64,000 nt of DNA, from contig JAJDCA010000080.1 in assembly GCA_029261055.1 (NCBI GenBank), positions 8,952 to 72,951 of the forward strand, given 5' to 3'. This DNA comes from Candidatus Omnitrophota bacterium. GTDB lineage: Bacteria > Omnitrophota > Gorgyraeia > Zapsychrales > Zapsychraceae. The translations under genes and the position numbers were made by a program. Positions 5,301 to 58,115 of this stretch are shown here, piece by piece (positions within the stretch are counted from its first letter, which is position 1; each line of letters begins with the position of its first letter). Below the pieces are notes generated by a model. The model saw nothing but the letters and a program-made list of their open reading frames with translations. It searched no databases and had not been told where the DNA came from.

Positions 5301-5314
5301 TGATCTCCCCTTTT

Positions 5315-39237: not shown

Positions 39238-40071
39238 TTAAAGTTTTAAATTTAAAAATGTAGTTACCACATCTTTATTTAAATATTTCCCGGAGGCCTC
39301 CTTTAATTCGGAAGTAATGACCTCCTTCGTCAATGGATCTCTATATGATCTAGCCGTATTCATGGCATCAAAGGCATCAGCAACGGCTATAATTTGAGAT
39401 CCTAGAGGAATTAATTTTTTTTTGAGGCCATCTGGATACCCACTTCCATCACATTTTTCATGATGATGAAGAATAATTTCTTTTTCTTTAGATAAGAACT
39501 TTAAAGGTTTGAGTATTTGAACACCTCTTCTGGGATGATCTTTCATGATTTTCCACTCTTCATCATTAAGCGTATCCTCTTTTCTTAAGATATTATCATC
39601 GATGCCAATTTTACCAAGATCATGTAAGATGGCTGCTCGTTCAATTAATTTTTGATCTTCAACCGGCAGCTTCATTGCTTTGGCAATAGCTAAAGTATAT
39701 TCTGCAACTCTTTTTGAATGACCATGTGTATAAGGGTCTTTTGCTTCCGCCGTTAAGATTAAAGTTGAAATCATATCAATTTCAGCACGTTCCAGTTTGC
39801 TTTGAGCATTAATTAAATTTTTATTTAACAATTGAAGCCTTCGTTTATCTTTTAATTCTTGAATCCAAATATAAAACATCAAGCCTAAGACTACAATTAA
39901 AATTATCTTGTTTGCCAAAAAACTACTCGGGAATACAGCCATGCAAAAGAAATGCATGAAAACTAAAAAAAGAGCAAGCACTACGATTAAGGATTTATAT
40001 TTTTGGTGCAAGAAAAAAGTTTTGTTCAGCCGGACTATTTTATCTTTGTGTATTTTCTTGGTTACCTTCAT
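39238..40071 (-). CDS. Membrane-anchored HD-GYP domain cyclic-di-GMP phosphodiesterase-like protein
   Basis: Two N-terminal TM helices. HD motif (HDLGKIGI) and HHHEKCDGSGYPDGL (GYP). Confidence 0.85.
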   Translation of the reverse strand: MKVTKKIHKDKIVRLNKTFFLHQKYKSLIVVLALFLVFMHFFCMAVFPSSFLANKIILIVVLGLMFYIWIQELKDKRRLQLLNKNLINAQSKLERAEIDMISTLILTAEAKDPYTHGHSKRVAEYTLAIAKAMKLPVEDQKLIERAAILHDLGKIGIDDNILRKEDTLNDEEWKIMKDHPRRGVQILKPLKFLSKEKEIILHHHEKCDGSGYPDGLKKKLIPLGSQIIAVADAFDAMNTARSYRDPLTKEVITSELKEASGKYLNKDVVTTFLNLKL

Positions 40072-40610: not shown

Positions 40611-42887
40611 TCATAATTTTAAGTTCCGTAATCTTAACGAATTTCCAATAACCGACACCGAACTAAAGCTCATCGCTGCTCCTGCAATTATCGGACTTAA
40701 AAGCAAACCAAAAAATGGATAAAGAACTCCGGCAGCTATCGGAACGCCCAGAGTGTTGTATATAAAAGCGAAAAATAAATTTTGCCGAATATTTTTCATC
40801 ACAGTCCTGCTTAAATACAATGCTTTAACAATCCCATTTAAATCTCCCTTAACTAAGGTTATTTCGGCACTTTCGATGGCAACATCGGTTCCGGTGCCCA
40901 TGGCAACGCCAATTTGAGCTTCAGCTAATGCCGGGGCATCGTTTATGCCATCACCAGCCATCATCACAACAGCTTCTTCATTCTTAAATTGTTTAACAAT
41001 GTCTTGTTTATCTTTCGGTTCTAGTTCAGCACGAATATCATCAATTCCCAATTCTTTAGCTATAGTTTGAGCTGTTCCTTGATTATCCCCTGTTAACATG
41101 ACTACTTTTAGTCCCATCTTGTGTAGTGCTCGAATGGCCTTTGGGGTCGTTTCTTTAATAGGATCAGCAATGCCTATAAGTCCTGCCATATATCCATCAA
41201 CAGCTACCCAAACTACTGTTTGCGCTTGTGCGTGTAGACGTGACGCTTCATTCTTCAAGTCTTCCGGTATGTCAATACCAGCCTTTTGAATAAATTTCTT
41301 TTTACCAAGCAAGATATTCTTTGCATTGACTTTTCCTTTTACTCCTCCACCGGTTACAGAGTCAAAATCCTTAACAGGGTTAAGACTCCAGTTGTGTTTT
41401 TTTGCATAATCAACTACGGCTCTGGCTAAGGGATGCTCACTACTGTTTTCTAATGAAGCTGCTAGCGTCATAAAGGCACTATCATTCCAGCCTTTTACCG
41501 CGATACAAGAAACAACTTTAGGTTTTCCCTCGGTCAGAGTACCTGTTTTGTCTATCAGAAGGTGTGTCACCTTTTCTGCTTTTTCAATAGCTTCGGCATT
41601 CTTAATTAAAATACCGCTTTGTGCTCCTCTTCCGACACCAACCATGATTGACATCGGGGTAGCCAAACCGAGAGCACAAGGACATGCAATAATTAAAACA
41701 GCAACAGCATTAACTAATGCATAAGCAAGCGCTGGCGCCGGCCCCCATATTGACCAAGTAATAAATGTAGCAATAGCACATAAAATAACGGCAGGAACAA
41801 AATACCCCGATACTTGATCAGCAAGTTTCTGAATAGGGGCACGGCTTCGTTGAGCTTCGGCAACCATATGGACAATTTGTGATAACAATGTTTCTGAACC
41901 GATTTTTTCAGTTTTCATCACAAAAGTTCCAGTTTGGTTAACAGTTGCTCCGATAACTATATCCCCTTCTTTTTTAACAACGGGGATGGGCTCTCCCGAT
42001 ATCATGGATTCATCAACCGTACTTTTTCCTTCAGTAAGCACACCATCCAGAGGGATTTTTTCTCCGGGACGGACACGCAGTAAATCTCCTTTCTGCACAT
42101 CATCAATAGCAACTTCTTCCTCTTCTCCATTTTTAAGACGATGAGCATTTTTAGCGGCAAGACCTAAAAGCGCTTTAATGGCATGACCTGTTCGATTGCG
42201 TGCTTTTGCTTCCAACAATTGTCCTAAAAGAACCAAAATCGTAATAACGGCCGCGGCTTCAAAATAAATACCGATTTCACCATGTTTTTTTAATGACTCA
42301 GGGAAAATATCCGGAAATAACACAGCCACAGCACTATAAACGTAGGCGGTGCCAACACCCATACTGATCAAAGTAAACATATTCAAGCTTTTGTTTAAAA
42401 TAGACTTCCAACCCCGAACAAAGAATATTCCACCAGCCCAAAAAACGACGGGTGTTGCTAAAATAAGTTGTATCCAATTTGAAACTTTTTGTGAAATAAT
42501 TGATTTCAAATCTAGTCCCGGGATCATCTCGCCCATCGCTAGAAGAAAAACAGGGATGCTAAAGGTAACACCCGTCCAAAATTTAAGTAATAGTGCTCGA
42601 AGTTCACGATTATTCTTTTCCTCCTCTCCATCTGTTATACTTTTTGGCTCGAGAGGCATGCCGCATTTAGGGCAATCTCCAGGCTTGTTTTGTTCTATTT
42701 CAGGGTGCATCGGACAGGTGTAAATGCTTTTTCCCGAAGTATCAAAAAAATGAGGATCGGTTTTCTGACCAGAGATAAATTTCTTTCTGCAAGCTTCACT
42801 GCAAAAATAATAGGTCTCAACATCTTGCAAAAGCTTGATAGCTTTTTTTTCGTCAATCTCCATTCCACAAATTGGATCTTTCACCAT
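40611..42887 (-). CDS. copA: Heavy-metal (Cu+/Ag+-type) P1B-type ATPase with N-terminal TRASH/YHS-type metal-binding domains instead of HMA domains
   Basis: Transmembrane CPC motif. DKTGTLT phosphorylation site, GDGINDAP hinge. The N-terminus has DPICGMEID...[12 protein letters not shown] plus a CPMHPEI...CPKCGMPL zinc-ribbon. Confidence 0.9.
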
Positions 42888-43797: not shown

Positions 43798-43833
43798 TTA
43801 GAATTTTAGAAAAACTTTCCATTATAATATTTA

Positions 43834-44106
43834 TTATTCAAAAAATGAAAGCGTTTCCTCTCTTTTCTTTACTTCTTTCTCGTATTTTTCATTTAATTGC
43901 TGCATTTTTTCTTTATACTCGGCATAAGTACACGTGCCTCTAATATGCTCAAGTTCCAGGGCATCACGAGTTTGCTTATATTCAGAAAAATGCGAATCTA
44001 CTAACCATGTTCTTGGGATATGTAAATAATTATGCCAAGGTTCTTTTCCTGCATAACTGCATCCAATTAAAAATAAAGCTAGAAACAACATAAATAAATT
44101 TTTCAT
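43834..44106 (-). CDS. Small lipoprotein, hypothetical
   Basis: Signal peptide with lipobox LIGCS. Confidence 0.45.
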   Translation of the reverse strand: MKNLFMLFLALFLIGCSYAGKEPWHNYLHIPRTWLVDSHFSEYKQTRDALELEHIRGTCTYAEYKEKMQQLNEKYEKEVKKREETLSFFE

Positions 44107-46061
44107 TATCCTCCCTCTTTCTTTAAAGAAATTGTTTTGTTAAGCTCTTCTATGAATTTATCTCGACATAATAAACAACAAAAAAAATATTCTTTACCAT
44201 CCTGTTTAACCATAAAAGGATTGTCCTTTGTATGCACAATCATTTTACAAATAGGGTCTATCGACTCATCATTATGCGTTATATTTGATAGTTTTTTGGA
44301 ATAATGGGCTGAGCTGTGCTGTTGAATAACCTCCGGCATTTCTTTATGACTTTTTATTTTCAGATACATCTCAACCATTTTTTTGCACTCAGAAATATCT
44401 AAAGAATAGAAATGTTTTTTTACAGAACTCAAAACATGAAAATCCATACTTAAATTCTTAAAGCCTAATCCAATCAACACTGATAAAGCGTGTATATCTG
44501 AGGAAATCTCTCCACAAATATTTAAAGGTTTATCTATTTCATCCGATATATCTACCATAGATTTTAACATTTGAAGCGCGACAGGATCGTCTAAGGGGCG
44601 TTCTACATAGACATTGGCATTGTTTCGATCCTTTGCATAAAAATATTGAAATAAATCATTTGTCCCTATGCTGGCAAAATCAATATAATTTAATAACTCT
44701 CTAAACCCCCATACCGCTGAAGGAACTTCAATTAAAACACCTTGTTGAAAATCATTGCAATACTTCCTATTTTCCTTTTTAAGCGTGTTAATAGCCTCTT
44801 CCAATAAATTTTGCACAAACAATAATTCATCCACACCTTCAATCATCGGATATAAAATACGAAGATTTTTGGTATGTACGCCTGCTCTTAAAATGGCTTT
44901 TAATTGCGTTTTAAGAATCTCGGGATGAAAGTGATAAATTCTATGAGCTCTTAAACCTAAAGCAGGGTTATCTTGTGGGCCTAAAGAAAAGTAAGGTAAT
45001 TCTTTGTCGCTCCCAACATCTAGAGTTCGAATTGTGATAGAATACCCTTCGCATTTCGCAAAAAGCTCCGAATAAACAGCAAACTGATCATCTTCTGAAG
45101 GAAAATCCTTTCGATTGTGCATAAAAAGAAATTCTGTCCGATATAAACCGATTCCCTTTGTGCCTTTTAAGTCATTTTTATGCAGTTGTTTTGGATCAAC
45201 AATATTAAGCCATATATTCACAGGTAATAAAATTTCATTGTCTTTAATGCATTTCTCTGAAATATTTCCTTGTGTTTCTAAGAAATCTTTATCTTCGGGG
45301 TTAATGATCACTTGTGTGTTTATGGCATCAACTAGAACATGTTGAAAATTTTTTAATTGTTTAGCACTGTAAGAATTCACCTTTAACACAGGCAAACCAA
45401 AAGATCTGCTTAAAATAGCCGCATGCGAAAAAGACGTACCTTTTTCCACAATAAATCCTTTAACTCCACAATCTTTTAATTCTAAAACTAAAAATGGCGT
45501 TAATTGTTTTGCAACGACAATAGGATTTTCAACATTTTTTAATAGTTCAGAAAAAATAATTCCATTTTCTTTAGTAAGCCGATTACGGAGTCGCAGCCCA
45601 ATATCCTGAAAATCAACACTTCGCTCACGGAAAGTAATATCCTCAATTTTTTCAAATATTGAAATAATTTCTTTTAAGACATGTTCAAGGGCAACTTCGG
45701 CAGAAAATAAATCTGTACGAATTTTTTCTTGAATCTTTTTACGAAATTCTGAATCATTCAAAATGCTTACATGCGTTTGAATGATTTCAGCTTCATCAAT
45801 AAAAGAATTGCATTTTAGATCTTTTATGGTTTTATTTAAATCGTCAATAACATCAATAACTTCTTTATTAAATCGATGGATTTCATCATCAATATCCTTT
45901 TCAAGTATAGTTTTCTTGGATATTTTATGATTATCAAAGGAATTAATAAAACAGACCTGCCCCTGAACAAATCCAGAAGTGATCATTTCCCCATGAATAA
46001 TTTGTCGTTTTAGATTCTCCATTATTCTTTTCCTAATGACATCCGTGTTTTTTATCATCAA
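44106..46061 (-). CDS. PTS Enzyme I-like PEP-utilising phosphotransferase fused to a C-terminal TRASH/YHS metal-binding domain
   Basis: EI N-terminal helical domain, phospho-His mobile domain (KGTSFSHAAILSRSFGLPV) and PEP-binding TIM barrel (GTNDLFQY). The terminal 60 aa read DPICKMIVHTKDNPFMVKQDGKEYFFCCLLCRDKF. Confidence 0.72.
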   Translation of the reverse strand: MMIKNTDVIRKRIMENLKRQIIHGEMITSGFVQGQVCFINSFDNHKISKKTILEKDIDDEIHRFNKEVIDVIDDLNKTIKDLKCNSFIDEAEIIQTHVSILNDSEFRKKIQEKIRTDLFSAEVALEHVLKEIISIFEKIEDITFRERSVDFQDIGLRLRNRLTKENGIIFSELLKNVENPIVVAKQLTPFLVLELKDCGVKGFIVEKGTSFSHAAILSRSFGLPVLKVNSYSAKQLKNFQHVLVDAINTQVIINPEDKDFLETQGNISEKCIKDNEILLPVNIWLNIVDPKQLHKNDLKGTKGIGLYRTEFLFMHNRKDFPSEDDQFAVYSELFAKCEGYSITIRTLDVGSDKELPYFSLGPQDNPALGLRAHRIYHFHPEILKTQLKAILRAGVHTKNLRILYPMIEGVDELLFVQNLLEEAINTLKKENRKYCNDFQQGVLIEVPSAVWGFRELLNYIDFASIGTNDLFQYFYAKDRNNANVYVERPLDDPVALQMLKSMVDISDEIDKPLNICGEISSDIHALSVLIGLGFKNLSMDFHVLSSVKKHFYSLDISECKKMVEMYLKIKSHKEMPEVIQQHSSAHYSKKLSNITHNDESIDPICKMIVHTKDNPFMVKQDGKEYFFCCLLCRDKFIEELNKTISLKKEGG

Positions 46062-46233
46062 AATAACTTCTATCTTCCTCGGGAAAGCTTGTCATCAATA
46101 AATATCCTCCAAACATAAAAACCATATAGAAAAATAAGGCAATGCTCGTTTTAATATTAAGAAACGGAAATAAAGAAATAGAAATTAATGGAATTATGCA
46201 TCCAATCAATATATTTATTTTATATTTCTTCAT
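46033..46233 (-). CDS. Small 2-TM membrane protein (DUF2933-like?), paralog of 46501..46728
   Basis: GCIIPLISI...FMFGGYLLM. Translationally coupled to the neighbouring genes. Confidence 0.4.
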   Translation of the reverse strand: MKKYKINILIGCIIPLISISLFPFLNIKTSIALFFYMVFMFGGYLLMTSFPEEDRSYFDDKKHGCH

Positions 46234-46514
46234 TTTTTAACTCCTACCTTAAGCTGAAAATTATAAATACTGGCGACTGTTGAACCAATAAGAGTTCCTA
46301 AGATAAATGTTTGAAATATTCCTAAAATCATATCTCCTAATGGAACGTTCATTTTAATAATGGCCGAAACATCAACCCCATGCATCATACTATTAAACAA
46401 AAATATAGACGCCTCTTTACCGGCAACCGCCATAACAAAAGCGCAACCTAAATATAAAATGGCTCCGGTTAATCCAAAAGCAAAACCAAACTTCTTAACA
46501 TTAATGACCCCCAT
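46230..46514 (-). CDS. Small 2-TM membrane protein, hypothetical
   Basis: Hydrophobic. Overlaps both flanking small genes (4 nt and 14 nt). Confidence 0.4.
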   Translation of the reverse strand: MGVINVKKFGFAFGLTGAILYLGCAFVMAVAGKEASIFLFNSMMHGVDVSAIIKMNVPLGDMILGIFQTFILGTLIGSTVASIYNFQLKVGVKK

Positions 46515-46728
46515 GATTTTCCCCTCCCTTCTCTAAAGAATGTTTTTCCTCAGGCCCATGTTCCTCCCCATGACCATGTCCTTTTAACATCATCAAATGA
46601 CAGCCAAACATAAGGACAATAAAGATGAAATATGTGACATTACTGCTAACCCCAAAAGAGGGCAGAATCATAATTAATAAAAGTGGGATCATGCATCCCA
46701 GCATATGCATTAAGGCATGATTTTTCAT
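46501..46728 (-). CDS. Small membrane protein with a His-rich C-terminal tail (DUF2933/CbtB-like metal-binding mini-protein?)
   Basis: MHMLGCMIPLLLIMILP...FMFGCHLMM followed by KGHGHGEEHGPEEKHSLEKGGENHGGH. Confidence 0.45.
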   Translation of the reverse strand: MKNHALMHMLGCMIPLLLIMILPSFGVSSNVTYFIFIVLMFGCHLMMLKGHGHGEEHGPEEKHSLEKGGENHGGH

Positions 46729-47429
46729 ATCCTTACCTCCTGAGTATGTTTTTGAAAAACAGTATATAAAAAGTTTTGGTTCGTTTGAAACGGAGTTATA
46801 TGGTTTTCCTTTAGACTTTTAATCAGGCTAAAGTCATCTAAGAATACGTTCTTTATAGATTCTTCTGAATATTGTGTGACCTTTAACCTGCTGCACTTCT
46901 TAGGTCCTTCCGTCGAAAATGTCGCTATAATCATATAGCCACAAGGTTTAATCAACTTACCTGCCACTTTGACATACTCTTTAATGTCTTGCTTGGAAGT
47001 TAAAAAATGAAAAGTGGCCCAGTCATGCCAAATATCGAATCGCTTCTCTGTATCAAAATCTAATATATCCGAAACAATCCATTCTACATTTCGGGAATAT
47101 TCTCCAAGTCTTTGCTGAGATTGTTCCAATGCTTTGACAGATATGTCTAAAACGGCGATATCCTTAAAATTTAATTCGATGAGTTTATCCACAAAGACAG
47201 AATTTCCGCCTCCTACATCAATAATAGAAGCATTCTGATCAGGGTTAAACGACAGAATCAAATCTATAGAAACTTGGAGATTCTGCTTATACCAACTAAC
47301 TTCATTGAATTTCTTTGTTTGATAAACATCTTCCCAATGTTTTTGCCTCGATTGTTTTTTAAATTTAAAGATGTTTTGCATTGCTTTATCTCCGAATACC
47401 GAACTTTGGTATAAATGCCGGAACGCCAT
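46725..47429 (-). CDS. Class I SAM-dependent methyltransferase, paralog of 14208..14831
   Basis: IIDVGGGNSVFVDKL. The likely real start is the internal MQNIFKF (about 47381), which gives a 5-nt overlap with the upstream ICMT-like gene rather than 44 nt. Confidence 0.75.
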   Translation of the reverse strand: MAFRHLYQSSVFGDKAMQNIFKFKKQSRQKHWEDVYQTKKFNEVSWYKQNLQVSIDLILSFNPDQNASIIDVGGGNSVFVDKLIELNFKDIAVLDISVKALEQSQQRLGEYSRNVEWIVSDILDFDTEKRFDIWHDWATFHFLTSKQDIKEYVKVAGKLIKPCGYMIIATFSTEGPKKCSRLKVTQYSEESIKNVFLDDFSLIKSLKENHITPFQTNQNFLYTVFQKHTQEVRI

Positions 47430-48036
47430 TTTTATAAATCAAATATTCTTCCCCAAATTGCTTTTCGACAGCGCTTTCTTCTCTCATCGCTAATTTAGAA
47501 TAAGCAAACATTAAGATTGGCCACATAACAATTGTTGTTAATGAGGGCCATTGAATAAGAAATCCTACTGTAATTAAAAATAGCCCTGTATATTGAGGAT
47601 GTCGTACATGTGAATACACACCTCCTGTTACTAATTTTTCTCCCTTAGATTCATGGATTAATTTCCAGCCTAAGTGTAAAAGTATAAAACCTCCAAAAAT
47701 AATCAGATTACTTATAATATGAAGAATTGTCATTGCTATATTAGAATCCGCCAAGCCAAGAAATACCAACCATAAATGCCCGTGATGATGAGAAAATGGA
47801 TCAAGAACAGGGTAAGTTTGTCCCATCCACGAGGATAGAAAATAAATCGTTAGGGGGAACCCATACATCTCTGTAAATAATGCAACTATAAATCCAATGA
47901 AGACCCCCATCGTTCTCCATTCGAATTTCTTTTTCGGTCCAATAAAACTGATAACGAAGAATACCAGAAGAAAACTATTAAATATCACCACCGGCCACAT
48001 ACCGTAAGCGTAATTGCCCAAGTGTTGTCCGTGCAT
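47386..48036 (-). CDS. Membrane methyltransferase of the ICMT / phospholipid-methyltransferase family, paralog of 11922..12392
   Basis: Multi-TM. SHVRHPQYTGLFLITVGFLIQWPS and the C-terminal REE..L...FGEEY motif. Confidence 0.68.
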   Translation of the reverse strand: MHGQHLGNYAYGMWPVVIFNSFLLVFFVISFIGPKKKFEWRTMGVFIGFIVALFTEMYGFPLTIYFLSSWMGQTYPVLDPFSHHHGHLWLVFLGLADSNIAMTILHIISNLIIFGGFILLHLGWKLIHESKGEKLVTGGVYSHVRHPQYTGLFLITVGFLIQWPSLTTIVMWPILMFAYSKLAMREESAVEKQFGEEYLIYKNGVPAFIPKFGIRR

Positions 48037-48054
48037 TTTTTTATACCTCCTCTT

Positions 48055-49473
48055 TTAAATTGTTAAAATATCTTCCTTAACTTCATCTAGCGCATCTTGT
48101 GAAACATGTCCTGCTTCGATTAAAGCTTTTATACTCTGTTGTAATGTATGCATTTTTTCACGCATTCCTGTCTGTATATAACTACGAATTTCTTGAATAC
48201 GATTCTGACGAATAATATTACGCAAAGCCAATGTAGCAACCATAACCTCCGTAGCAACGATCATACCAGTTCCATCCATTCGATTAATCAAACGCTGTGA
48301 ACAGATCGCCTGTAAAGATTGAGCTAATTGCGTACGAATGAGTGCTTGCCGCTCTGAATCAAAAGCATCCAATATACGCGTAATGCTCTGTGTAGCTGTA
48401 CCGCTATGCAATGTCCCTAAAACAAGATGTCCTGTTTCTGCCGCTTGTATGGCTAAAGAAATGCTTTCAAAATCTCTTAATTCTCCTATAACGATAATGT
48501 CAGGATTCTCACGTAATGAGCTTCTTAAACCATCAGCAAAAGAATTCGTATGCCAACCAACTTCTCTTTGATGTATGAGTGATCGTTGATTTGGAATAAT
48601 ATATTCGATAGGATCTTCAATAGTAATAATATGTCTTTCTTCATTTTGGTTAATCGTATTAATAAATGAAGCCAAAGTTGTCGTTTTACCGCTTCCCGCG
48701 GGCCCGGTAATTAATACCATACCGTGTCTAATACGAATAAGATCTTCAAAAACATCTGGTAAATTTAACTCTTTTATAGTAGGTATTTTGTAAGGTAACG
48801 GTCTGATGGCAACAGCGATACCATTCTGTTGCCGAAAAATATTGATACGAAATCGCGAAAGTCCTTTTATATCTAAACCAATATCTACGTCATGTCCTTG
48901 TTGAAATTGTGCCTCCTTTTTTTCCGGCATTATTTCTTTAATAAATTTATCTATCATTTGTTTATTTAATGGCTTCTCGTTAATCTGTTTGAATACACCA
49001 TAAATTTTAAGCATTGGAGTTTCTCCAACCGAAAGAAATAAATCCGATGCGTTTTGTTTAACCGCTTCTTCAAACCATCGAATTATTATTGAATCGTTTG
49101 CCGGTTCAATTTCATGAAAGGCAGAGCTATCAGTTTGCTTATCTAACGTTTCTTTTTTTAAAAATGTACTTGCGCACGTGGAACAACAAAATTTAAATAG
49201 TTTTCCGTGAATATTCATTTCAGAATATTCTTCTCCTTCTTTAATCTTCTTAGAGCAAAGTTCACAAATACCGATTTCACAAACTGTTTTATTTAAACCG
49301 GCAAATCTTTTTGGATTCATTTGAAAAGACTGCATACAAGACAAAGAACAAAATACATATTTTTTCCCCTCATAATCTTGAAGTAAAGCATTCGATTCTG
49401 CCGCTTTATCTAATACTTCCATATTGCATACAGGATCCCGTGCCATTTTATTCTCCTTAGACAAACCAAACAA
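48055..49473 (-). CDS. pilT: PilT-family type IV pilus retraction ATPase with an N-terminal extension of about 130 aa containing two TRASH/zinc-ribbon metal-binding motifs
   Basis: Intact Walker A GPAGSGKTTTLAS, ITIEDPIEY, His box and the C-terminal PilT region. The N-terminus has DPVCNMEVL...KYVFCSLSCMQSF (C-x24-C-x3-C) and CELCSKKI...KFCCSTCASTF. Confidence 0.85.
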   Translation of the reverse strand: MFGLSKENKMARDPVCNMEVLDKAAESNALLQDYEGKKYVFCSLSCMQSFQMNPKRFAGLNKTVCEIGICELCSKKIKEGEEYSEMNIHGKLFKFCCSTCASTFLKKETLDKQTDSSAFHEIEPANDSIIIRWFEEAVKQNASDLFLSVGETPMLKIYGVFKQINEKPLNKQMIDKFIKEIMPEKKEAQFQQGHDVDIGLDIKGLSRFRINIFRQQNGIAVAIRPLPYKIPTIKELNLPDVFEDLIRIRHGMVLITGPAGSGKTTTLASFINTINQNEERHIITIEDPIEYIIPNQRSLIHQREVGWHTNSFADGLRSSLRENPDIIVIGELRDFESISLAIQAAETGHLVLGTLHSGTATQSITRILDAFDSERQALIRTQLAQSLQAICSQRLINRMDGTGMIVATEVMVATLALRNIIRQNRIQEIRSYIQTGMREKMHTLQQSIKALIEAGHVSQDALDEVKEDILTI

Positions 49474-49521
49474 ACTTTCGGTTTGGTCAAACTTCTTGAT
49501 TTGACGATTATATTTTGTTAA

Positions 49522-49899
49522 TTACGATCTCAGTATCTTTTCGGCTTCAAACCAATCATCACTATCCTTTCCGTGACAACATCCTCTCTTCTCATAAAGT
49601 TCGTACGCCTTTGCTTGAATTTCTTTGTTTAAGTCAATCGGACAATTCAAAGTTACCTTCTTGAAATCTTTTATTTTATTTTTTTTAGTTTTTACAGTTT
49701 TTTTGACCATTTTAATATCCTTTCTTTTATTGTTATTTCCTTTTGCGGGAAGATAATCACAGCAATTAGCATATTTTCTTGGTTCAGATAAAAAATTCCT
49801 TCTACAGGTTTTACAACAAAAATAATAAATAATACCGTCGATAACGCCGCTGATATGTTTTTTTGAAGACTCTTTGATGCAAACTGGACACATTTCCAT
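49522..49899 (-). CDS. Small TRASH/zinc-ribbon protein with a basic linker and a C-terminal DUF2934-like tail
   Basis: CPVCIKE...YYFCCKTCRRNF. K-rich middle. C-terminal W.EAE.IL. Confidence 0.5.
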   Translation of the reverse strand: MEMCPVCIKESSKKHISGVIDGIIYYFCCKTCRRNFLSEPRKYANCCDYLPAKGNNNKRKDIKMVKKTVKTKKNKIKDFKKVTLNCPIDLNKEIQAKAYELYEKRGCCHGKDSDDWFEAEKILRS

Positions 49900-49933
49900 T
49901 TTTAATCTCCATATTTTTTAAAATCCTATTTTC

Positions 49934-50501
49934 TCATTTAACCCGATTAGGTTTTTGTCTTCTCTGATATCTTCTACTATTTGAGAAATTTCTTACTCTA
50001 ATTCCATTATTAATAGCCCCGCGCATAAGCCTTTGATTAGACATCCTTTTTTGATTGGGAAATTTTCGAGTTGTAATATTATTAGAAATACGTTTTTGAT
50101 TCGGATTTTTTTTCGCAGTAGTTCTATTACTAGAACTGTTGCCTCCTCCTGTCGTTGGTTTTGAAGAAGTAGTGTGTAAGCTGGGCGTAAACCCTGATTT
50201 AGAAAACCGCAAAGACCCTCCCGAATATTTCCCCTTCATCCCATCAACACGCATAACCAAACGATGAGATTTATATAATAAAAAATCATCCGGCATACTT
50301 TTTTTCATATACTCCATCGCATCATCATTCGCCCATAATTTCATCCAAGCAGCATGAATCTTATCCTGATCCTTTTCAAAAACAGCTTCTCTAAAATCTT
50401 TAATAATACGTATTTCAAAACTTTTTTGAGCATATCCGAAAGAGGAGAAATATAAAAAACTAAATAAAGCGATCAGTAAGATTTTCATCATGCCCCCTTT
50501 G
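49934..50501 (-). CDS. Secreted basic protein, hypothetical
   Basis: Signal peptide beginning MMKILLIALF, with a GGGGG SD-like element just upstream. The low-complexity N/R/T-rich C-terminus suggests a shorter start than the ORF-track call. Confidence 0.4.
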
Positions 50502-50632
50502 AAGGATACTAAACTGAAACAATTTATATACCATTCCCAACACATTCCATCCTGATAAGCCTACGTTTAAATTCTTTTATTTAAATCAACTAAGTTTTCT
50601 ATAATTTGTCTTTTTGTATTTTCTTTCCAATC

Positions 50633-50869
50633 TTAATGAAGATGTACGCCTTGCTCCTTTACAATATTTTTCTTACTTATAAAAAAAATATTCTCTCCCA
50701 TTTCTTCCATCGTTATAAGTCTTTCCCTTATTAACCATCCTAAGCTCATAAGAATATCCTCTTTACTGTACCCGAGATAAGCCCCAATTTCCCTGTCTGT
50801 TAATGGACCTTTGACTTCATCAAACAATTCTAAAATTTCTCCTGAAACGATACCAATGTTTATCATCAT
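50633..50869 (-). CDS. Small winged-helix-like protein (paralog family copy 2)
   Basis: GIVSGEILELFDEVKGPLTDREIGAYLG...LMSLGWLIRE. Confidence 0.5.
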   Translation of the reverse strand: MMINIGIVSGEILELFDEVKGPLTDREIGAYLGYSKEDILMSLGWLIRERLITMEEMGENIFFISKKNIVKEQGVHLH

Positions 50870-50941
50870 TTCACACCTCCTAATTGATAGTTTATAATTC
50901 CAATCACCTAATTTTCTGTTTGTTTTACCACCGTTTTGTCC

Positions 50942-51646
50942 TTAACTATTTTCTCCTACTAATATATAAATAAATCCTCCGTGAAATTCAGTCATTGAAA
51001 CTTTATTAAAACACTTCTTAAACGAATGCTGAGTCCGATGTGATAAATATTCCTTATCTACCCCAAAAGTTCGCGTGATGCTTAAAAACAAAGGCGTAAA
51101 AAATGAAAACAAATTGGAGGGTTCCTTACAATCAATAATCACAAATCGTTTTAACGGGTTTAACGCCAGAGCTACTTTTTTAATCACCTCATCGTACTTA
51201 AGAATATACCCAAATACACCAGTCGAGATGACAGCATCGACATTTGGAGGAAATTGGTATTGAACAACATCCGAGTGGATTAATTCCACATTATTCCAGC
51301 TGTTAAGTTGTATTCTCATTTTTGCTTGGGCTAACATTCTATCAGTAACATCCACACCAATAATTTTCCCGCTTGAACCAATCACGTTCTCAATGAGTTC
51401 AAAATTTAAACCTGTACCGCAACCGAGATCAACAACCGTATCTCCTTCCTTCAGCTCTAAAGCATCAATTGCCATTTTTCTGTACTTCTTTATATCTATA
51501 CCAACGAGACAGTATAACTTGGCTGTGAAATCATAATTTTGAGCTCTCCGACGGTATATTTCGATAACTTTATCTTTTCCCGCAGATGTAGTTTTTTTAT
51601 CTTTAACTAACACGAGGGGCTCCTTTTTAATGGAAGACTCTTCCAT
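50942..51646 (-). CDS. Class I SAM-dependent methyltransferase (UbiE/Methyltransf_11-like), first product of RND operon 2 by overlap
   Basis: VVDLGCGTGLN motif I and the acidic post-I motif. Overlaps the RND gene by 40 nt. Confidence 0.78.
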   Translation of the reverse strand: MEESSIKKEPLVLVKDKKTTSAGKDKVIEIYRRRAQNYDFTAKLYCLVGIDIKKYRKMAIDALELKEGDTVVDLGCGTGLNFELIENVIGSSGKIIGVDVTDRMLAQAKMRIQLNSWNNVELIHSDVVQYQFPPNVDAVISTGVFGYILKYDEVIKKVALALNPLKRFVIIDCKEPSNLFSFFTPLFLSITRTFGVDKEYLSHRTQHSFKKCFNKVSMTEFHGGFIYILVGENS

Positions 51647-54600
51647 ATGGCAAAGATAACAGGAATAACAATTAAGGTTAAAATAGTTGATGTAACAAGT
51701 CCTCCAATCATTGGAGCAGCGATTCTCTGCATAACCTGAGAACCGGCACCATGCATAAACATAACAGGCATTAACCCTATCATCGTTGTTCCCACTGTCA
51801 TAGAAACAGCTCGAACACGTAAAACCGCCGCATCAATGACCGCTTTGTTAACATCATCAGCGCTCTTAATTTCGCCCTTCTTCAATCGTTCTTCATAAAC
51901 TAATTTAAGATAAACAAGCATGACCATCCCTGTTTCTGCCGCCAAACCAAAGAGTGCTATAAACCCAATTCCAACAGCAACACTCATGTTATAGCCAAGC
52001 GCATAGATATACCAAATCCCACCTACTAATGAAAATGGCAATGCGAGCATAACAAGCAGACTTTCTTTAAAGTCCTTGAAATAAAAATATAAAAGAAGAA
52101 AGATGATGGCCAATGTTAATGGAACCGCAATGGCAAGACGCTTGTTTGCTCTTTCCATATATTCATACTGCCCGCTCCAGATAATAGAATATCCTGCTGG
52201 AAATTTAATATTGTCCAAAACAGCTTTTTTTGCATTTTCGACATAAGTTCCTACATCTGAAGTTGTTAAATCTACATAGATCCAGGCGTTAAGTTTCGCA
52301 TTCTCACTTTTAACAACAGGTGGTCCTTTGACAACTTCTATCCTGGCTAATTGCATCAAAGGAACCTGTTCTTTTCGAGGAGTTGGTACTAGCACTCTCT
52401 TGATACTTTCAATATCATCCCTTAACTCCCTGGCATACCGAATATTAACCGGATACCGTTCCAATCCTTCAACGGTGGTTGTAATATTCATTCCGCCAAT
52501 GGCTGTTTTAATAACGTCCTGCACGTCACCTACCGTCAATCCATAACGGGCTGCTGCCAGACGATCAATGTCAATATCCAGAAAGTTCCCCCCTACAACT
52601 CTTTCAGAATAGACACTTAACGTCCCAGGAACTTTACGAACGACGGCTTCGATCTTTTTTCCTAAACTTTGCAATACATTTAAGTCTGGTCCGGCAACCT
52701 TTATCCCAACAGGTGTTTTAATTCCTGTCGATAACATATCCACCCGTGTTTTAATCGGCATAGTCCAGGCATTCGTTACACCGGGAAACTTAATAGCCTG
52801 ATCCAATTCATTAATAAGTTTTTTAACTGTCATTCCCTTACGCCATTCTTTTTCAGGTTTCAATTGAATGATTGATTCCATCATGCTTAAAGGAGAGGCA
52901 TCCGTGGCACTCTCAATACGCCCGACTTTACCAAGGACATGATGTACTTCCGGAAATGTTTTAATGATTTTGTCTGTTTGTTGTAAGATCTGTTTAGCTT
53001 TTGTAATCGATATGCCAGGTAAAGTTGTCGGCATATATAGAAGATCTCCTTCATATAACGGAGGCATAAACTCTGAACCTAATTGTTTATACGGGAAAAT
53101 TGACAACGCAGCCAGAATGACACTGACAAGCAACACTGTTTTCTTTTTCTTTAGGAAAAGATTCATAATTGGTTTATAAATCGCAATTTCGCGCTTAACA
53201 ACAGGATTATCGTCTTCACTCCTAATTTTTCCACGAACAAAATATCCAATAAGAATAGGAATAATTGTAACTGCTATTAGACTGGACGCACCAAGCGCAA
53301 AGACCCATGTATAGGCTAATGGCCTGAATAATCGCCCCTCTTGTCCCGTTAAAGCAAAAATAGGAAGAAAGGATACTGTAATAATGACAAGGGCAAAAGC
53401 CAGAGCAGGACCTACCTCTTTACTGGATTTAATAACCAAATCCCAATGGTCGTCTCCTTCTTTTTTGTTCTGCAAATATTTATGGAAATTTTCAACTAAT
53501 ACAACGGCAGCATCAACCATAACACCGATTGCAATCGCAATTCCTCCTAGCGACATAATATTGGCATTCACTCCTTTCGCATTCATGATAATAAAGGAAA
53601 TCAGAATACCGACCGGTAGAGTAAATACAGCGACCATTGCACTTGGAAAATGCAGAAGAAAGATAATGCATACAAGCGTAACAATGACTATCTCGATAAG
53701 CAGCGTATTCTTTAAAGTATCAATGGAACGATTGATGAGTCCTGATCGGTCGTACGCAGGTTCTATGGTGACACCTTCCGGCAGGCCGGGTTTCAGCTCT
53801 TCGATCTTCTTCTTAACATTTTCAATCGTTTTAAGAGCATTTTCTCCAAAACGCATTACAACAACTCCTCCAACAACTTCCCCTTCACCATCCATTTCGA
53901 TAAGTCCTCGTCGAATGTCAGGCCCTGTATGAACAGTGCCCAACTCTTTAACAAGAATAGGAGTTCCGTCAGCGCTAACATCAACAACAATATTGCGTAT
54001 ATCATCAAGCGATTTGATATACCCTAATCCTCGTATCATGAACTCTGTTTCCGCCATTTCGATCAGACGTCCTCCTACATCATTATTAGAGCGTTTAATC
54101 GCCATATGGATTTTCTTAAGAGGAATGTTATAAGCAAGTAATGAATTAGGATCGATATCAACCTGATACTGTTTAACAAAACCTCCAACACTTGCCACTT
54201 CAGATACCCCAGGAACGCTAATCAACTCATATTTTAAAAACCAATCCTGAATAGATCTGAGTTCAGATAAATCATGTTTTTTGGACTTCAATACATATTG
54301 ATAAACCCACCCGACTCCTGTTGCATCGGGTCCCAAGGTCGGAGTGACCCCGTCCGGCAACTGATTGGAAACAAAATTTAAATACTCCAATACACGACTC
54401 CGCGCCCAATACATATCTGTCCCATCTTCAAATATGATATAAACAAATGAAAATCCAAAGAAAGAATACCCCCGTACAATCTTGGCTTTAGGCACAGAAA
54501 GCATTGTGGTTGTTAAAGGATAGGTCACTTGGTCTTCAACAACTTGAGGAGCCTGTCCAGGATATTTTGTAAAAACAATGACCTGGACATCACTCAAGTC

Positions 54601-54720
54601 AGGAATAGCATCAAGAGGGATCGTCCTCATAGCATTAATGCCAAAGACAAAAATAATGGCTGTGAGAATCAGTACGATCATCCTGTTTTTCACGGAATAT
54701 TCGATGAGTTTATCAAACAT
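51607..54720 (-). CDS. cusA: Heavy-metal efflux RND permease (CusA/CzcA family), system 2
   Basis: 1037 aa. MFDKLIEYSVKNRMIVLILT N-terminus and 12-TM topology colinear with system 1. Confidence 0.93.
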   Translation of the reverse strand: MFDKLIEYSVKNRMIVLILTAIIFVFGINAMRTIPLDAIPDLSDVQVIVFTKYPGQAPQVVEDQVTYPLTTTMLSVPKAKIVRGYSFFGFSFVYIIFEDGTDMYWARSRVLEYLNFVSNQLPDGVTPTLGPDATGVGWVYQYVLKSKKHDLSELRSIQDWFLKYELISVPGVSEVASVGGFVKQYQVDIDPNSLLAYNIPLKKIHMAIKRSNNDVGGRLIEMAETEFMIRGLGYIKSLDDIRNIVVDVSADGTPILVKELGTVHTGPDIRRGLIEMDGEGEVVGGVVVMRFGENALKTIENVKKKIEELKPGLPEGVTIEPAYDRSGLINRSIDTLKNTLLIEIVIVTLVCIIFLLHFPSAMVAVFTLPVGILISFIIMNAKGVNANIMSLGGIAIAIGVMVDAAVVLVENFHKYLQNKKEGDDHWDLVIKSSKEVGPALAFALVIITVSFLPIFALTGQEGRLFRPLAYTWVFALGASSLIAVTIIPILIGYFVRGKIRSEDDNPVVKREIAIYKPIMNLFLKKKKTVLLVSVILAALSIFPYKQLGSEFMPPLYEGDLLYMPTTLPGISITKAKQILQQTDKIIKTFPEVHHVLGKVGRIESATDASPLSMMESIIQLKPEKEWRKGMTVKKLINELDQAIKFPGVTNAWTMPIKTRVDMLSTGIKTPVGIKVAGPDLNVLQSLGKKIEAVVRKVPGTLSVYSERVVGGNFLDIDIDRLAAARYGLTVGDVQDVIKTAIGGMNITTTVEGLERYPVNIRYARELRDDIESIKRVLVPTPRKEQVPLMQLARIEVVKGPPVVKSENAKLNAWIYVDLTTSDVGTYVENAKKAVLDNIKFPAGYSIIWSGQYEYMERANKRLAIAVPLTLAIIFLLLYFYFKDFKESLLVMLALPFSLVGGIWYIYALGYNMSVAVGIGFIALFGLAAETGMVMLVYLKLVYEERLKKGEIKSADDVNKAVIDAAVLRVRAVSMTVGTTMIGLMPVMFMHGAGSQVMQRIAAPMIGGLVTSTILTLIVIPVIFAIWKSLPLKRSPSC

Positions 54721-54755: not shown

Positions 54756-56495
54756 TTAATAATCATCTCGTGCTCCGCAAAACGCAATCTTGGCACTAAC
54801 GTATGGGTTACCAACTTCCTCTTCTTTTTGAACCCAGGATTTCTTTTCCATCCCACAAAAGAAAAGTTTATACCCTTTTTCCTTGGCAGCGTCTTTTGTA
54901 TAACTCTTCATATACTGAATCATAGAATCACTTAAATCTAAAAATGCAGAACGCACTTTTACAATATCTTTCTCAACCAATCCGTCTGTCGTATTCAAGA
55001 TCTTCTCGACAATAGCTTTGGCATTTTGCTTTTCATCAGATTGTAATATGGCAGAAGCTCGATTCTTTATTAATGACGCTTTTTGAGCCATGTCAGCCAA
55101 CGAATCTTGTGCCAACTGTTTTCGAATAAAAAAGTAAGCTTCCCAAATATCATCCATGGCTTTTTGAGTACTTTCCTTAACGCTCATTATCATACCTTCA
55201 GGCATATCCATTTTCATTGTCTGGCTATCCGCTTTTTTGGCTTTTAGTATTTTACTGATTGCTTCCGTCAATTGACTTTCAGAATCAATAAGGAACTGAG
55301 CGGAGGTTACTACAAGCTCGCCTTCCTTTGCGCCATGGAGAATTTCATAAAAATCTTTTGTTTCCATTCCTATTAAAACATCTCTTGGCTCAAATAACCC
55401 TTCCCCTTTGTCAATAATCAGCACTTTTCTTTGCCCTGAATGAATAATGGATTCTTTGGGAACAGCAACAACAGACCGACTAGGTGCTGTATTAATTTTG
55501 ACATCGGCATACATATCCGGCTTTAACTCTCCTTCAATATTATTAAGCTCAATTCTGATTTTAGCCGTTCGTGTTTTACTTTCTAAATAAGGATAAACAT
55601 AGGTTATGGTTCCTGAAAAACTTTTCCCAGGTAGGTAAGACAGGGTCACCTCAGCCTCCTGCCCTACTTTGACCCAAGGTAATTCATATTCATATACATC
55701 TCCATAGACCCAAATTGTTGAAAGGTCAGCAATACGGTAAAGATTTTCACCTGGTTTAATATATTCTCCCTCCAAAGCAGTCTTATGAATAATTACACCT
55801 GTTGCCGGAGAGTGGATCATGAGTGTCTTACGGACTTCTCCTGATTGTTCTAATTCTTTAATATGAACTTCCGGAACATCCCAATATTCGAGTCTCTTTC
55901 GTGACGAATCAACCAAAGTCTGTGAACGATTACTTATTTCCTTAATATTGCCTTCTTTCATTTTTTGGTTGTATTCCAAAGCTAGTAGATATTCTTGTTG
56001 TGTCGAAACCAATTCCGGGCTATATATTTCTAGAAGAGGATCATCTTTTTTTACGTCTTGGCCTTCATAATCAACATAAAGCTTTTCAATCCATCCCCCC
56101 ACTTTTGTATTGATGTAGGCCACTTTCTTCTCATCATAAGTCACCCGCCCAACAGCTCTGATATCTCTCTTTAAAACTCTTTTGGCGATCACCTCTGTTC
56201 GCACACCAATATTTTGTACTGTCGCCGGATCAATTCTAATTCCCCCTTCAATAGGTTCCTCTCCTTCATACACAGGAACCATATCCATACCCATATTATC
56301 TTTCCCTGGCTTCTCTGATATAAATGTAGGGTCCATTGGAGATTGATAATACGAAATTTTTTTACCCCCTTTATCTTTTTGGGTAGAAGTTGTCTCGTGC
56401 TGATGTGCTGGTTTATCGCCTTTAGATTTTAAAAGAAAAATACTTAAGACCCCAACGGCAACTATAATTAGGACTAAAAACTTTTTATTCTTCAT
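54756..56495 (-). CDS. cusB: RND periplasmic adaptor (CusB family) with a C-terminal extension of about 170 aa
   Basis: Lipoyl/beta-barrel MFP core (residues about 90-400), followed by an extra helical C-terminal domain ending in a Cys-containing tail (FFCGME...FCGARDDY). Confidence 0.85.
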   Translation of the reverse strand: MKNKKFLVLIIVAVGVLSIFLLKSKGDKPAHQHETTSTQKDKGGKKISYYQSPMDPTFISEKPGKDNMGMDMVPVYEGEEPIEGGIRIDPATVQNIGVRTEVIAKRVLKRDIRAVGRVTYDEKKVAYINTKVGGWIEKLYVDYEGQDVKKDDPLLEIYSPELVSTQQEYLLALEYNQKMKEGNIKEISNRSQTLVDSSRKRLEYWDVPEVHIKELEQSGEVRKTLMIHSPATGVIIHKTALEGEYIKPGENLYRIADLSTIWVYGDVYEYELPWVKVGQEAEVTLSYLPGKSFSGTITYVYPYLESKTRTAKIRIELNNIEGELKPDMYADVKINTAPSRSVVAVPKESIIHSGQRKVLIIDKGEGLFEPRDVLIGMETKDFYEILHGAKEGELVVTSAQFLIDSESQLTEAISKILKAKKADSQTMKMDMPEGMIMSVKESTQKAMDDIWEAYFFIRKQLAQDSLADMAQKASLIKNRASAILQSDEKQNAKAIVEKILNTTDGLVEKDIVKVRSAFLDLSDSMIQYMKSYTKDAAKEKGYKLFFCGMEKKSWVQKEEEVGNPYVSAKIAFCGARDDY

Positions 56496-56524: not shown

Positions 56525-57811
56525 TTACTTTCCAAATTTTTCAACATTTATACCAACAGCTCTTTCAAGATTGGCAACAGATTTTTCGTAATCGGCAACT
56601 GCCCGATAGTAAGCAATTTTAAAATTCAAAAGAACCCGCTCAGAATCGATTAAGTTAAGGAAATCCGTCTTGCCGGTTTCATATCCAGCCTGCGAAGCCT
56701 TTAAAGATTCTTCTGCTTGAGGAATTAAAGCACCTTTATATAATTTCACTAAATCCTCTGCTGTCTTCATTTGAAAATGCGCATCTTTTAACTGAAAAGA
56801 AACACTGTTCTTAACATTTTGATAAATATTTTCGCTAGAGGATAAGTTATTTTTTGCTTCGTTCACGCTGGCTTTAATTCGTCCTTGCCAAATAGGAACA
56901 TTCACGGCAACCTTTCCCATCCATGCGTCTTGGCCATCATTAAAAGCTGAAGTATGTCCAGAGCCGACATCAATAAAATCCACGCCCAATGTAAAATCCG
57001 GGAAGTAATCCTTCTTCTTTAATGCAACCATGTCGGTATGCTTATCAATATTAATGGAAGCTGCCTTTAATTCCTGTCGATATTCTTCTGATAAAGCTGA
57101 AAGTTTTTCCAATGAATAGGGAAACTCTGTTAACGTAAAATTATCAATCTGTCCAATAGGGGTTTCAATGGGTCTACTTAATAAGGTATTAATTTTTTCC
57201 TGGAGGGTAACTTCCCGCTCTGCAAGCTTATAAAGTTTGGCTATAAGTTTAGAAATCTCAACCTGCGCCTTCATGACATCCTGCTGAGACGCTATTCCAG
57301 TAGAATATTTGCTTTCAGCAACCTTTTCTAGTTCGTCCAAAAGATCTTTAATTTCTTCTGTCATTGCGGTAGATTTTCTAATCCAATAAAGCTCATAATA
57401 GCTGTGCTTTAAATTCTTAATAACTTCCTGCACAACAGTTTCATATCTTTGATAGGCAATGTCTCTGTCCTTTTCTGCAACTTTACCCTTTAATGTCAGT
57501 TTGCCGAAAAAGGGAAATTTTTGAGCAATACCATATTTACCTATCTGCGGACCAACGCGTGTTTCAGGATTTTCTACAAAATAACCGGCACTTAACATCG
57601 GGTCCTGTAAAGAAACAGCTTGTTTAATCTTTTGTTCAGAAGCTCGAAATGCGTCATGCATCGCTTTAATTTCAGGGTTGTTCTCAACGGCTTCCTGAAT
57701 CAAATCATCTAAATTCACGCCATCCGTTTTTTGTGCGTATACAGCGGGTGTTGATATCGCAAAAAAACTTATGACAAAGCATGTTGCAAAAACAGTTCGC
57801 AAATGGTTCAT
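56525..57811 (-). CDS. cusC: Outer-membrane efflux protein (CusC/TolC family)
   Basis: Signal peptide. Duplicated OEP repeat with coiled coils. Confidence 0.85.
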   Translation of the reverse strand: MNHLRTVFATCFVISFFAISTPAVYAQKTDGVNLDDLIQEAVENNPEIKAMHDAFRASEQKIKQAVSLQDPMLSAGYFVENPETRVGPQIGKYGIAQKFPFFGKLTLKGKVAEKDRDIAYQRYETVVQEVIKNLKHSYYELYWIRKSTAMTEEIKDLLDELEKVAESKYSTGIASQQDVMKAQVEISKLIAKLYKLAEREVTLQEKINTLLSRPIETPIGQIDNFTLTEFPYSLEKLSALSEEYRQELKAASINIDKHTDMVALKKKDYFPDFTLGVDFIDVGSGHTSAFNDGQDAWMGKVAVNVPIWQGRIKASVNEAKNNLSSSENIYQNVKNSVSFQLKDAHFQMKTAEDLVKLYKGALIPQAEESLKASQAGYETGKTDFLNLIDSERVLLNFKIAYYRAVADYEKSVANLERAVGINVEKFGK

Positions 57812-57812: not shown

Positions 57813-58115
57813 TTAATGCCTCCCCCGGGTTCTTTTTAATAAAACTAATATTTCATCGATTTTTTTTAATCTTTCTTTCTCATCTTTTTTTATAAATGAT
57901 TCTGTAACACATGTCCCTAAATGGCGGTCAAGAATTTTGTCCTCAACGCTCAAAATAGCTCCGACAACCGCATGTAATTGCGTTATGATATCCACACAAT
58001 ATTCACCTTTCTCAATCATCTTCTTTATTCCACCGATTTGGCCTTCGATTCGATTGAGCGCGATGATCTGTTTCTTTTGTGACAAATACTTTTTTTGTTT
58101 TAACATCTTAGTCAC
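57813..58115 (-). CDS. csoR: CsoR/RcnR family metal-sensing transcriptional repressor
   Basis: DUF156 fold. Conserved Cys in YCVDIITQLHAV (the C-H-C W-X-Y-Z fingerprint) and C-terminal LGTCV. Confidence 0.8.
   Translation of the reverse strand: MTKMLKQKKYLSQKKQIIALNRIEGQIGGIKKMIEKGEYCVDIITQLHAVVGAILSVEDKILDRHLGTCVTESFIKKDEKERLKKIDEILVLLKRTRGRH

Follow-up and report, generated by a model that had tools for sequence, protein, structure and literature searches.

A YHS-TRASH-PilT fusion protein conserved within a copper-efflux gene island of a Candidatus Omnitrophota bacterium

We have identified a gene that fuses an N-terminal pair of YHS and TRASH domains to a PilT-family ATPase (48055..49446) in a 64-kb stretch of a Candidatus Omnitrophota genome (contig JAJDCA010000080.1, positions 8,952 to 72,951), which was analyzed whole and is referred to here as the window. 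Across a group of uncultured bacteria, the fusion gene is conserved as one element of an island of copper-efflux genes. We report its architecture, conservation, family memberships and genomic context, and interpret its product as most likely a metal-responsive PilT paralogue, probably one responsive to Cu(I), which may link pilus behaviour directly to copper stress. A known motor and a known metal domain are thereby joined in a conserved yet undescribed combination with a telling context; a sequence-only reading of the window had known of no description of such a fusion, and full-text literature searches turned up no published account of a YHS/TRASH-PilT fusion. All genes and domains given below with window coordinates lie on the minus strand (-).

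The longest open reading frame (ORF) at the site, 48055..49473, encodes 472 amino acids (aa) counted from a TTG at 49473. The start codon is likely the ATG at 49446 rather than this TTG; an AAGGAG ribosome-binding site (49453..49458) was read from the sequence 6 nt ahead of the ATG. The predicted protein then begins MARDPVC and runs for 463 aa to the stop codon, and an identical 463-aa protein (P0001) occurs in a public protein collection. Pfam residue numbers for the fusion protein are given on the 472-aa ORF, and all other residue numbers on the 463-aa protein. From the ORF, Pfam and TIGR01420 matches and aligned homologues, the order of the protein is a YHS domain (residues 3-50), a TRASH domain (59-98), a disordered linker (99-120) and a complete PilT core (121-463). 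The sequence-only reading had described a PilT with a Cys-domain extension of about 130 aa. The extension is present, with YHS, TRASH and T2SSE matches in one ORF and recurrence in homologues, and its length is about 120 aa.

The canonical PilT plan (~345 aa, two domains, no N-terminal accessory domain) is not matched by a 463-aa protein in which residues 1-120 are extra, and one database entry for a homologue (P0007) has a shifted start. Both points could suggest an annotation artefact, with the real start near residue 120 and the Cys-rich region an untranslated leader. We regard this as effectively refuted. No in-frame ATG, GTG or TTG was found by sequence reading between M76, within the TRASH domain, and M145, which falls inside the conserved PilT N-domain after ASDLFLSVGE, so that an intact PilT cannot begin downstream of the Cys module. 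The mis-called start, which the sequence-only reading had itself named as one result that would undo it, is further ruled out by the strong ribosome-binding site before ATG 49446 and by protein-level conservation of the extension, with invariant Cys, across 25 homologues. On this conservation, the extension is judged to be translated and under constraint.

The first domain (49297..49440) matched YHS (PF04945) at 12-59 with 52.4 bits against a gathering cut-off of 30.3, covering profile positions 2-45 of 47. Its Cys motif is C7-x25-C33-x3-C37, one residue longer than the C-x24-C-x3-C first read from the sequence. The putative ligands are D4, C7, C33 and C37, an Asp plus three Cys being the ligand set proposed for YHS domains (Linder 2015, PMC4626032). 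In 26 aligned sequences, D4 and C7 were conserved in at least 90%, and F32, C33 and C37 were invariant. The second domain (49153..49272) matched TRASH_HVO_1752_C (PF24273) at 70-107 with 30.8 bits against a cut-off of 27, a marginal pass. Its motif, C61-x2-C64-x22-C87-C88-x2-C91, includes the classic TRASH signature as C64-x22-C87-x3-C91, the signature being taken here as C-x19-22-C-x3-C (Ettema 2003) and the families as PF24273 and PF08394. All five cysteines were invariant in the 19 aligned sequences possessing this domain. Both of the TRASH/YHS-type Cys motifs claimed for the extension thus have Pfam matches above cut-off.

The AlphaFold2 model of the whole fusion protein had a mean predicted local distance difference test (pLDDT) score of 79.6, with both small domains folded. 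The linker (49087..49152), which is poorly conserved and variable in length in the alignment, fell below a pLDDT of 50 at residues 101-111 and 114-117. Modelled alone, the module reached a pLDDT of 86 (87-95 in the YHS domain), and its fold matched YHS/TRASH structures, NosL among them. In these models the module is a tethered pair of YHS/TRASH-fold domains. Conservation and the folded models together argue that it is neither a leader sequence nor a chance Cys pattern, and a disordered linker of ~20 aa fits a tethered input domain.

A free tandem YHS-TRASH protein encoded in the same island (59264..59629) is 40% identical to the PilT module over 94 residues (E = 1e-25), which makes it the likely source of the module. 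A profile built from these two sequences and run against 1.84 billion representatives gave 3403 matches at E up to 0.001; these are mostly multi-YHS repeat proteins and are informative on kinship, not on the number of PilT fusions. Of the top 44 matches longer than 300 aa, 19 have a CusB-type HlyD_D23 domain, 17 HMBD and 4 P1B-type ATPase domains, and ArsP, HMA and NosL are found as well. By these matches, the closest kin of the module are dedicated metal-transport proteins. The 99-aa module on its own, run against an index of 5.8 billion proteins, gave no match, as no candidate had enough 5-residue words in common with it. Only context and this kinship point to Cu as the metal of the module.

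The core (48055..49086) matched TIGR01420 (NCBIfam pilT_fam, the PilT/PilU family) with 422.3 bits against a cut-off of 319.1, over residues 123-453 and profile positions 4-335 of 343, and T2SSE (PF00437) at 130-403 with E = 9.8e-51. It carries a Walker A motif (GPAGSGKTT), an Asp box (ERHIITIEDPIEY), a Walker B motif (DIIVIGELRD) and a His box (TGHLVLGTLHS), the columns of which are invariant across the 26 aligned sequences and align to 3jvu, and its ALRNIIRQ aligns to the PilT-type AIRNLIRE motif. The nearest solved structures were PilT of P. aeruginosa (3jvu, 301 bits), PilT of Aquifex (299 bits) and PilT4 of Geobacter (284 bits), whereas other T2SSE-type relatives scored lower (PilU 232 bits, DotB 149, GspE 120 and PilB 108). 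PilTs of canonical length (354-360 aa) fall in the same clade at 61-67% identity. Judged by motifs, family profile and solved-structure relatives, the core is a full PilT.

The homologue search covered 5.8 billion proteins and found full-length homologues at 49-77% identity to the fusion protein; N-termini were inspected for the 120 best matches. Among these, the YHS-plus-TRASH form made up about 23 clusters of 455-491 aa. A YHS-only form was seen in P0015, P0030, P0035 and P0055, and a TRASH-only form, the domain of which was not flagged in the precomputed Pfam list, in P0014, P0017, P0024, P0027, P0029, P0032, P0034 and P0048. Cys-free forms had extensions of ~40-85 aa or, in a few cases, the canonical length of 354-360 aa. 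The four N-terminus types were intermixed in one PilT clade of a rough neighbour-joining tree, the YHS labels of which over-call, their pattern having also caught TRASH-only proteins; the form counts were made by eye from the N-termini. Databases label these homologues only as "PilT/PilU family type 4a pilus ATPase". The taxonomic spread, which rests on source names only, consists mostly of Candidatus Omnitrophica metagenome-assembled genomes (MAGs; P0007, P0018, P0023), joined by one hydrothermal-vent metagenome (P0015) and one MAG of Thermodesulfobacteriota (cluster of P0103). A GTDB scan (alignment of residues 1-230, pattern [GED][LFC][SA]RFR[VI]N[IV]F) returned generic PilTs, with none spanning the N-terminal module among the matches listed. 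Separately, many matches of 720-790 aa (e.g. P0031, P0036, P0058 and P0063, from Lentisphaeria and Byssovorax MAGs) resemble two tandem-fused PilT cores.

Around the fusion gene, the island was read from ~60700 down to 40611. This stretch begins with two secreted proteins (60359..60700 and 59830..60390), which have low-complexity regions rich in His and Glu and a C-terminal YHS/TRASH signature (CPVS..LCC..C); these are probably periplasmic metal binders encoded upstream of the Cus genes. The free YHS-TRASH protein follows, recognized by Pfam and succeeded by a DUF2231 membrane protein as in locus L001, and then DUF2582 and DUF302 proteins. Next are a CsoR/RcnR-type metal repressor (57813..58115; 78% identical to the L001 gene carrying PF02583), an outer-membrane factor (56525..57811; OEP), CusB (54756..56495; HlyD_D23) and CusA (51607..54720; TIGR00914, 1174 bits). 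A methyltransferase, a DUF2582 winged-helix protein (50633..50869; assigned by Pfam, with homologues in L001, L004, L009 and L091) and a 203-aa basic secreted protein lead to a TRASH-DUF2934 mini-protein and the YHS-TRASH-PilT fusion. Downstream of pilT by 18 nt lies an ICMT/PEMT-family membrane methyltransferase (47386..48036; Pfam), 76% identical in L001, L004 and L009. A second methyltransferase and three small membrane proteins come next (46033..46728: one with a His-rich tail, one a DUF5676 protein at 77.5 bits, one of 66 aa). The stretch closes with Enzyme I of the phosphotransferase system (PTS) bearing YHS/TRASH (PtsI; 44106..46061), a lipoprotein, a DUF2764 protein and a CopA-type YHS-HMBD-P1B ATPase (40611..42887; Pfam E1-E2_ATPase and HMBD, with YHS at 27 bits, below cut-off). 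The fusion gene is probably co-expressed with the island. A pattern scan of the window gave ten TRASH/YHS signatures, and about nine ORFs bear such domains, a wider pattern that the sequence-only reading had missed.

Ten YHS-PilT loci were read, the window counted (L001-L004, L009 and L090-L093 being the others), together with the TRASH-only loci L006 and L008. CusA and/or a CopA-type ATPase lay within 10 kb in eight of the ten, namely the window, L001, L002, L003, L004, L009, L091 and L093. PilT identity to the window fusion was 65-66% in L001 and L009, 64% in L093, 60% in L003, 56% in L091 and L004 and 53% in L002. As in the window, CsoR stands ahead of the Cus genes in L001, L002 and L009; DUF2934 immediately precedes PilT in the window, L001, L009 and L091, and ICMT immediately follows it in the window, L001 and L009. 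The three small membrane proteins are 51-85% identical in L001, L004, L009, L091 and L093, where PilT is only 56-66% identical, and are the most conserved part of the island. P-II, DUF2582 and HD_5 proteins are also recurrent neighbours. The short contig of L092 shows only ICMT and DUF5676, and the TRASH-only L006 lies within a Cus-CopA island. In the window, the HD_5 protein (HD-GYP type) is encoded at 39238..40071; it recurs in copper islands and is found also in L003, L004 and L091, and such proteins may tie the islands to cyclic di-GMP (c-di-GMP) signalling. As a side observation on gene calling, the public call for PilT of L001 (9977..11368), the 455-aa entry P0007, starts 8 codons late and so removes the DPVC motif of the YHS domain; the 463-aa ORF restores MVRDPVC.

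A second pilT in the window (1682..2849) belongs to the same clade, and its core is 65% identical to the fusion protein. It had been read as frameshifted and lacking the Cys extension, and it bears out that description. The gene is split by a single extra A (TTGAATTAAT) into ORFs 2313..2849 and 1682..2311, with the junction near 2311..2320 (TCTTTGAATTAATATG), and its extension has 48 aa and is Cys-free. Removal of the extra A gives a 388-aa ORF with 86.6% full-length identity to the intact P0053; the break reflects either very recent pseudogenization or an error in the assembly. This pilT closes a parallel cassette of CusA (5315..8419), P-II, DUF2582 (3791..4030), a TRASH mini-ORF (3657..3782), a receiver-domain protein (2893..3285) and PilT. 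The order CusA, DUF2582, TRASH mini-ORF, PilT is therefore common to 1682..8419 and 48055..54720; a receiver-domain protein precedes the Cys-free PilT in the former, and YHS-TRASH is fused to PilT in the latter. The PilT paralogue thus belongs to the cassette even without a fused Cys module.

Upstream of the fusion, 49522..49899 encodes a 125-aa protein with a TRASH-type N-terminus (CPVC..FCCKTC), a Lys-rich linker and a C-terminal DUF2934 (PF11154; residues 92-124, 41.4 bits against a cut-off of 22; Pfam). The sequence-only reading had made this a free TRASH-like protein with a basic tail. The N-terminus is putatively of TRASH type, with a signature CPVC-x22-CC-x2-C, scores below the cut-offs (YHS 27.0 bits against 30.3; PF24273 24.5 against 27) and paralogous mini-ORFs in L001 and at 3657..3782; the C-terminus is DUF2934 and not a basic tail. 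This DUF2934 can be aligned with the free DUF2934 genes that precede PilT in L001, L009 and L002. In L001, a 57-aa TRASH mini-protein (9580..9753), missed by public gene calls, and DUF2934 are separate adjacent ORFs, and a word-index search for homologues of the window protein found none with both parts joined. Island copies of DUF2934 have an RGCCHG motif in common (window 49528..49626; L001 9777..9965; L009 9802..9981), and this Cys-Cys-His in the conserved core may be a further metal site. The mini-ORF of the parallel cassette, which encodes 41 aa (METCPICSRDG...NYFCYERCKQKF), adjoins DUF2582 and is paralogous to the N-terminus of the 125-aa protein; it is too short for ordinary ORF lists.

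These neighbourhoods bear on whether the module might serve as a docking tag, that is, a protein-protein adaptor recruiting the ATPase to CopA, CusB partners, the TRASH mini-protein or DUF2934 for a task other than pilus work. The hexamer would then power a job specific to the island, for instance assembling, extracting or turning over parts of the envelope or of efflux systems, instead of retraction. Such a role would suit a PilT paralogue fixed in two parallel Cus cassettes of the window, one of them without the fused module, and TRASH-mini and DUF2934 genes placed just upstream of PilT and fused together in the window. The absence of pilus genes nearby, and membrane-protein neighbours that are more conserved than PilT, are in keeping with it too. 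The core, however, is 61-67% identical to canonical-length PilTs and retains the PilT-specific AIRNLIRE-type motif, pilT often lies apart from the other pil genes, and we know of no precedent for PilT acting on efflux systems. We consider a docking role unlikely.

YHS domains also occur on other enzymes of these islands. PtsI of the window (TIGR01417, 411 bits) has a C-terminal YHS/TRASH signature (CKMIVH..YFFCCLLC; YHS at 27.3 bits, below cut-off), and the ORFs scanned showed no gene for HPr or EII. Elsewhere, YHS tags are found on a PfkB kinase (L002, L003), a glycogen phosphorylase and a Pyr_redox_2 protein (L003) and a cupredoxin (L006). One way to read these unrelated housekeeping-type enzymes is as copper-hardened isoenzymes: the island would hold stress copies of PilT, PtsI, PfkB, phosphorylase and a TrxR-like protein, and the YHS tags would soak up or buffer copper locally, shielding the enzyme or raising the buffering capacity of the cytoplasm, with no regulation of activity. 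We find this quite improbable, as one or two sites per protein provide little buffering, a long flexible tether keeps the module at a distance from the active site, and the only enzyme-YHS fusion tested was activated, not protected (PMC4626032). It can also be proposed that in this lineage YHS/TRASH is a general plug-in copper switch on many unrelated cytoplasmic enzymes of one CsoR-controlled island, with PilT, PTS Enzyme I, PfkB kinase, glycogen phosphorylase, a TrxR-like reductase and a cupredoxin as candidates; copper would then act on the proteins themselves to rewire pilus retraction or attachment together with carbon flux. This wider proposal we regard as rather doubtful. Untagged pyruvate kinase and phosphoenolpyruvate carboxykinase (PEPCK) occur in the related islands of L002, L003, L004 and L006 as well.

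The reading that we favour, though tentatively and with slightly less belief than doubt, is that the fusion is a PilT-family ATPase of a copper-stress gene set, equipped with a tethered metal-binding input, and that, by analogy with the adenylyl cyclase that copper activates through its YHS domain (PMC4626032), metal occupancy would modulate the hexamer and hence pilus retraction. The proposal of the sequence-only reading, that metal-binding domains wired to the retraction motor would couple pilus dynamics to metal status, is partly supported. The protein would be a PilT-family hexameric ATPase carrying a flexibly tethered YHS-then-TRASH module derived from the free YHS-TRASH protein of the island, within a conserved order of CsoR, CusCBA, DUF2582, TRASH-mini, DUF2934, PilT, ICMT, small membrane proteins and CopA. 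On a rise in cytoplasmic Cu(I), the YHS site (Asp plus three Cys) would be occupied, and possibly the second Cys-rich domain too. Occupancy would alter the activity or conformational state of the PilT hexamer, so that metal stress would act directly on the retraction of type IV pili and, through it, on attachment, twitching or uptake. That the module binds a metal, which metal this is, that occupancy is coupled allosterically to the ATPase and that the protein works on type IV pili are all inferences; the recurring HD_5 proteins and the receiver-domain protein before the paralogous PilT fit a behavioural output.

Several observations weigh against this metal-input reading. No gene for a pilin, PilB, PilC or PilMNOPQ was found across the 64 kb of the window or, in 11 related loci, within 10 kb, and no prepilin leader motif in any frame of the window, so that the link to the pilus rests on homology; a literature check on type IV pili in Omnitrophota yielded nothing usable. 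A search of 43800..52000 for promoters and terminators gave counts that did not exceed the shuffled expectation and was thus uninformative, and co-transcription is taken from spacing and orientation only. The YHS-PilT locus L090 is without metal genes, and the TRASH-only L008 lies outside a metal island. Close relatives lack one or both Cys domains, so that the module is dispensable for core function. YHS/TRASH folds can, moreover, hold a purely structural metal, as does phenol hydroxylase with Zn. Cd is seen in eL24 of the H. marismortui 50S crystal structure, and the YHS domain of T4mo is without metal (PMC4626032).

The second domain of the fusion looks like a Cys4 zinc ribbon. The module might consist of structural zinc ribbons with no part in metal status, in which constitutive Zn only stabilises or oligomerises the ATPase like the tetracysteine motif of PilB/GspE, the location in the island being historical. 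In that case the finding would reduce to a lineage-specific decoration of an ordinary PilT. Set against such a reading are the copper context kept in eight of the ten loci, the copper-transport proteins that are the module's nearest relatives, and the distal domain, a bona fide YHS with Asp and three Cys rather than Cys4. We judge structural zinc to be a distinctly improbable explanation.

The window as a whole has 35% G+C. Counting ORFs of 110 aa or more, 59 of 63 run on the minus strand, and the four plus-strand ones are each nested in a larger minus-strand ORF; every 2-kb bin shows negative GC skew (cumulative -5.1). The remaining ORFs include the second Cus system, MerR, MerC and ArsR, a cytochrome bc-type complex, and haem and lipoprotein genes. 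ArsR (22130..22504), MerC (22813..23193) and MerR (23462..23893) together make the window a broad metal-resistance region. An MtrA-like protein with a pterin-binding DUF4346 is encoded at 20134..21264. A third RND (resistance-nodulation-division) pump ORF of 1085 aa (60719..63976) probably runs past the window end, since its ACR_tran match begins only at profile position 136, and its three separate ACR_tran stretches suggest a large insertion.

To our knowledge, only a few ligands are known to feed directly into PilT; control of pilus dynamics is mostly placed with the extension ATPase and with c-di-GMP or Chp signalling. If confirmed, a metal input built into PilT would be a simple case of a small-ion signal wired into the retraction motor, and if the plug-in switch proved true, no retraction motor before the PilT fusion would have been known to be gated by a metal ion directly. 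The island also shows that copper-efflux genes have a PilT paralogue as a regular companion in a little-studied phylum, whose bacteria are very small and possibly attached to hosts; in their genomes the tagging of metabolic enzymes with YHS domains is a wider habit.

Compared with canonical PilT (P. aeruginosa 3JVU, Aquifex aeolicus 2EWV and Geobacter metallireducens PilT4 6OJX), to which residues 121-463 align end to end at 284-301 bits, the fusion adds a 120-aa N-terminal YHS-TRASH module and linker, and it is encoded in a copper-efflux island with no pilus genes in view, not in a pilT-pilU or pil locus. A direct precedent for a YHS domain acting as a sensor is the class III adenylyl cyclase of Mycobacterium phlei, in which a C-terminal YHS domain lets copper switch the enzyme on (Linder 2015, PMC4626032). 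Like that cyclase, the PilT fusion joins a YHS domain with Asp and three Cys by a short linker to a nucleotide-using enzyme; unlike it, the fusion has its module at the N-terminus, combines YHS with TRASH, has a different catalytic partner and is known from sequence alone. The closest sequence relatives of the module are the N-terminal YHS/HMBD domains of P1B copper ATPases, such as the YHS-HMBD of the island CopA, and the YHS repeats of CusB-type proteins. Those domains feed or regulate a transporter, whereas the PilT module is attached to a cytoplasmic motor ATPase. Among pilus motors, N-terminal c-di-GMP-binding input domains such as MshEN gate the hexameric extension ATPases MshE and PilB2. 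The principle of a tethered input is the same, and the likeness goes by principle only, the fold, the ligand and the ATPase subfamily (extension as against retraction) being different. Finally, archaeal Lrp-TRASH regulators (e.g. CopR) and TRASH metallochaperones present copper-linked TRASH domains in cop clusters, with a small free TRASH protein adjoining the effector; the archaeal output is transcription or chaperoning.

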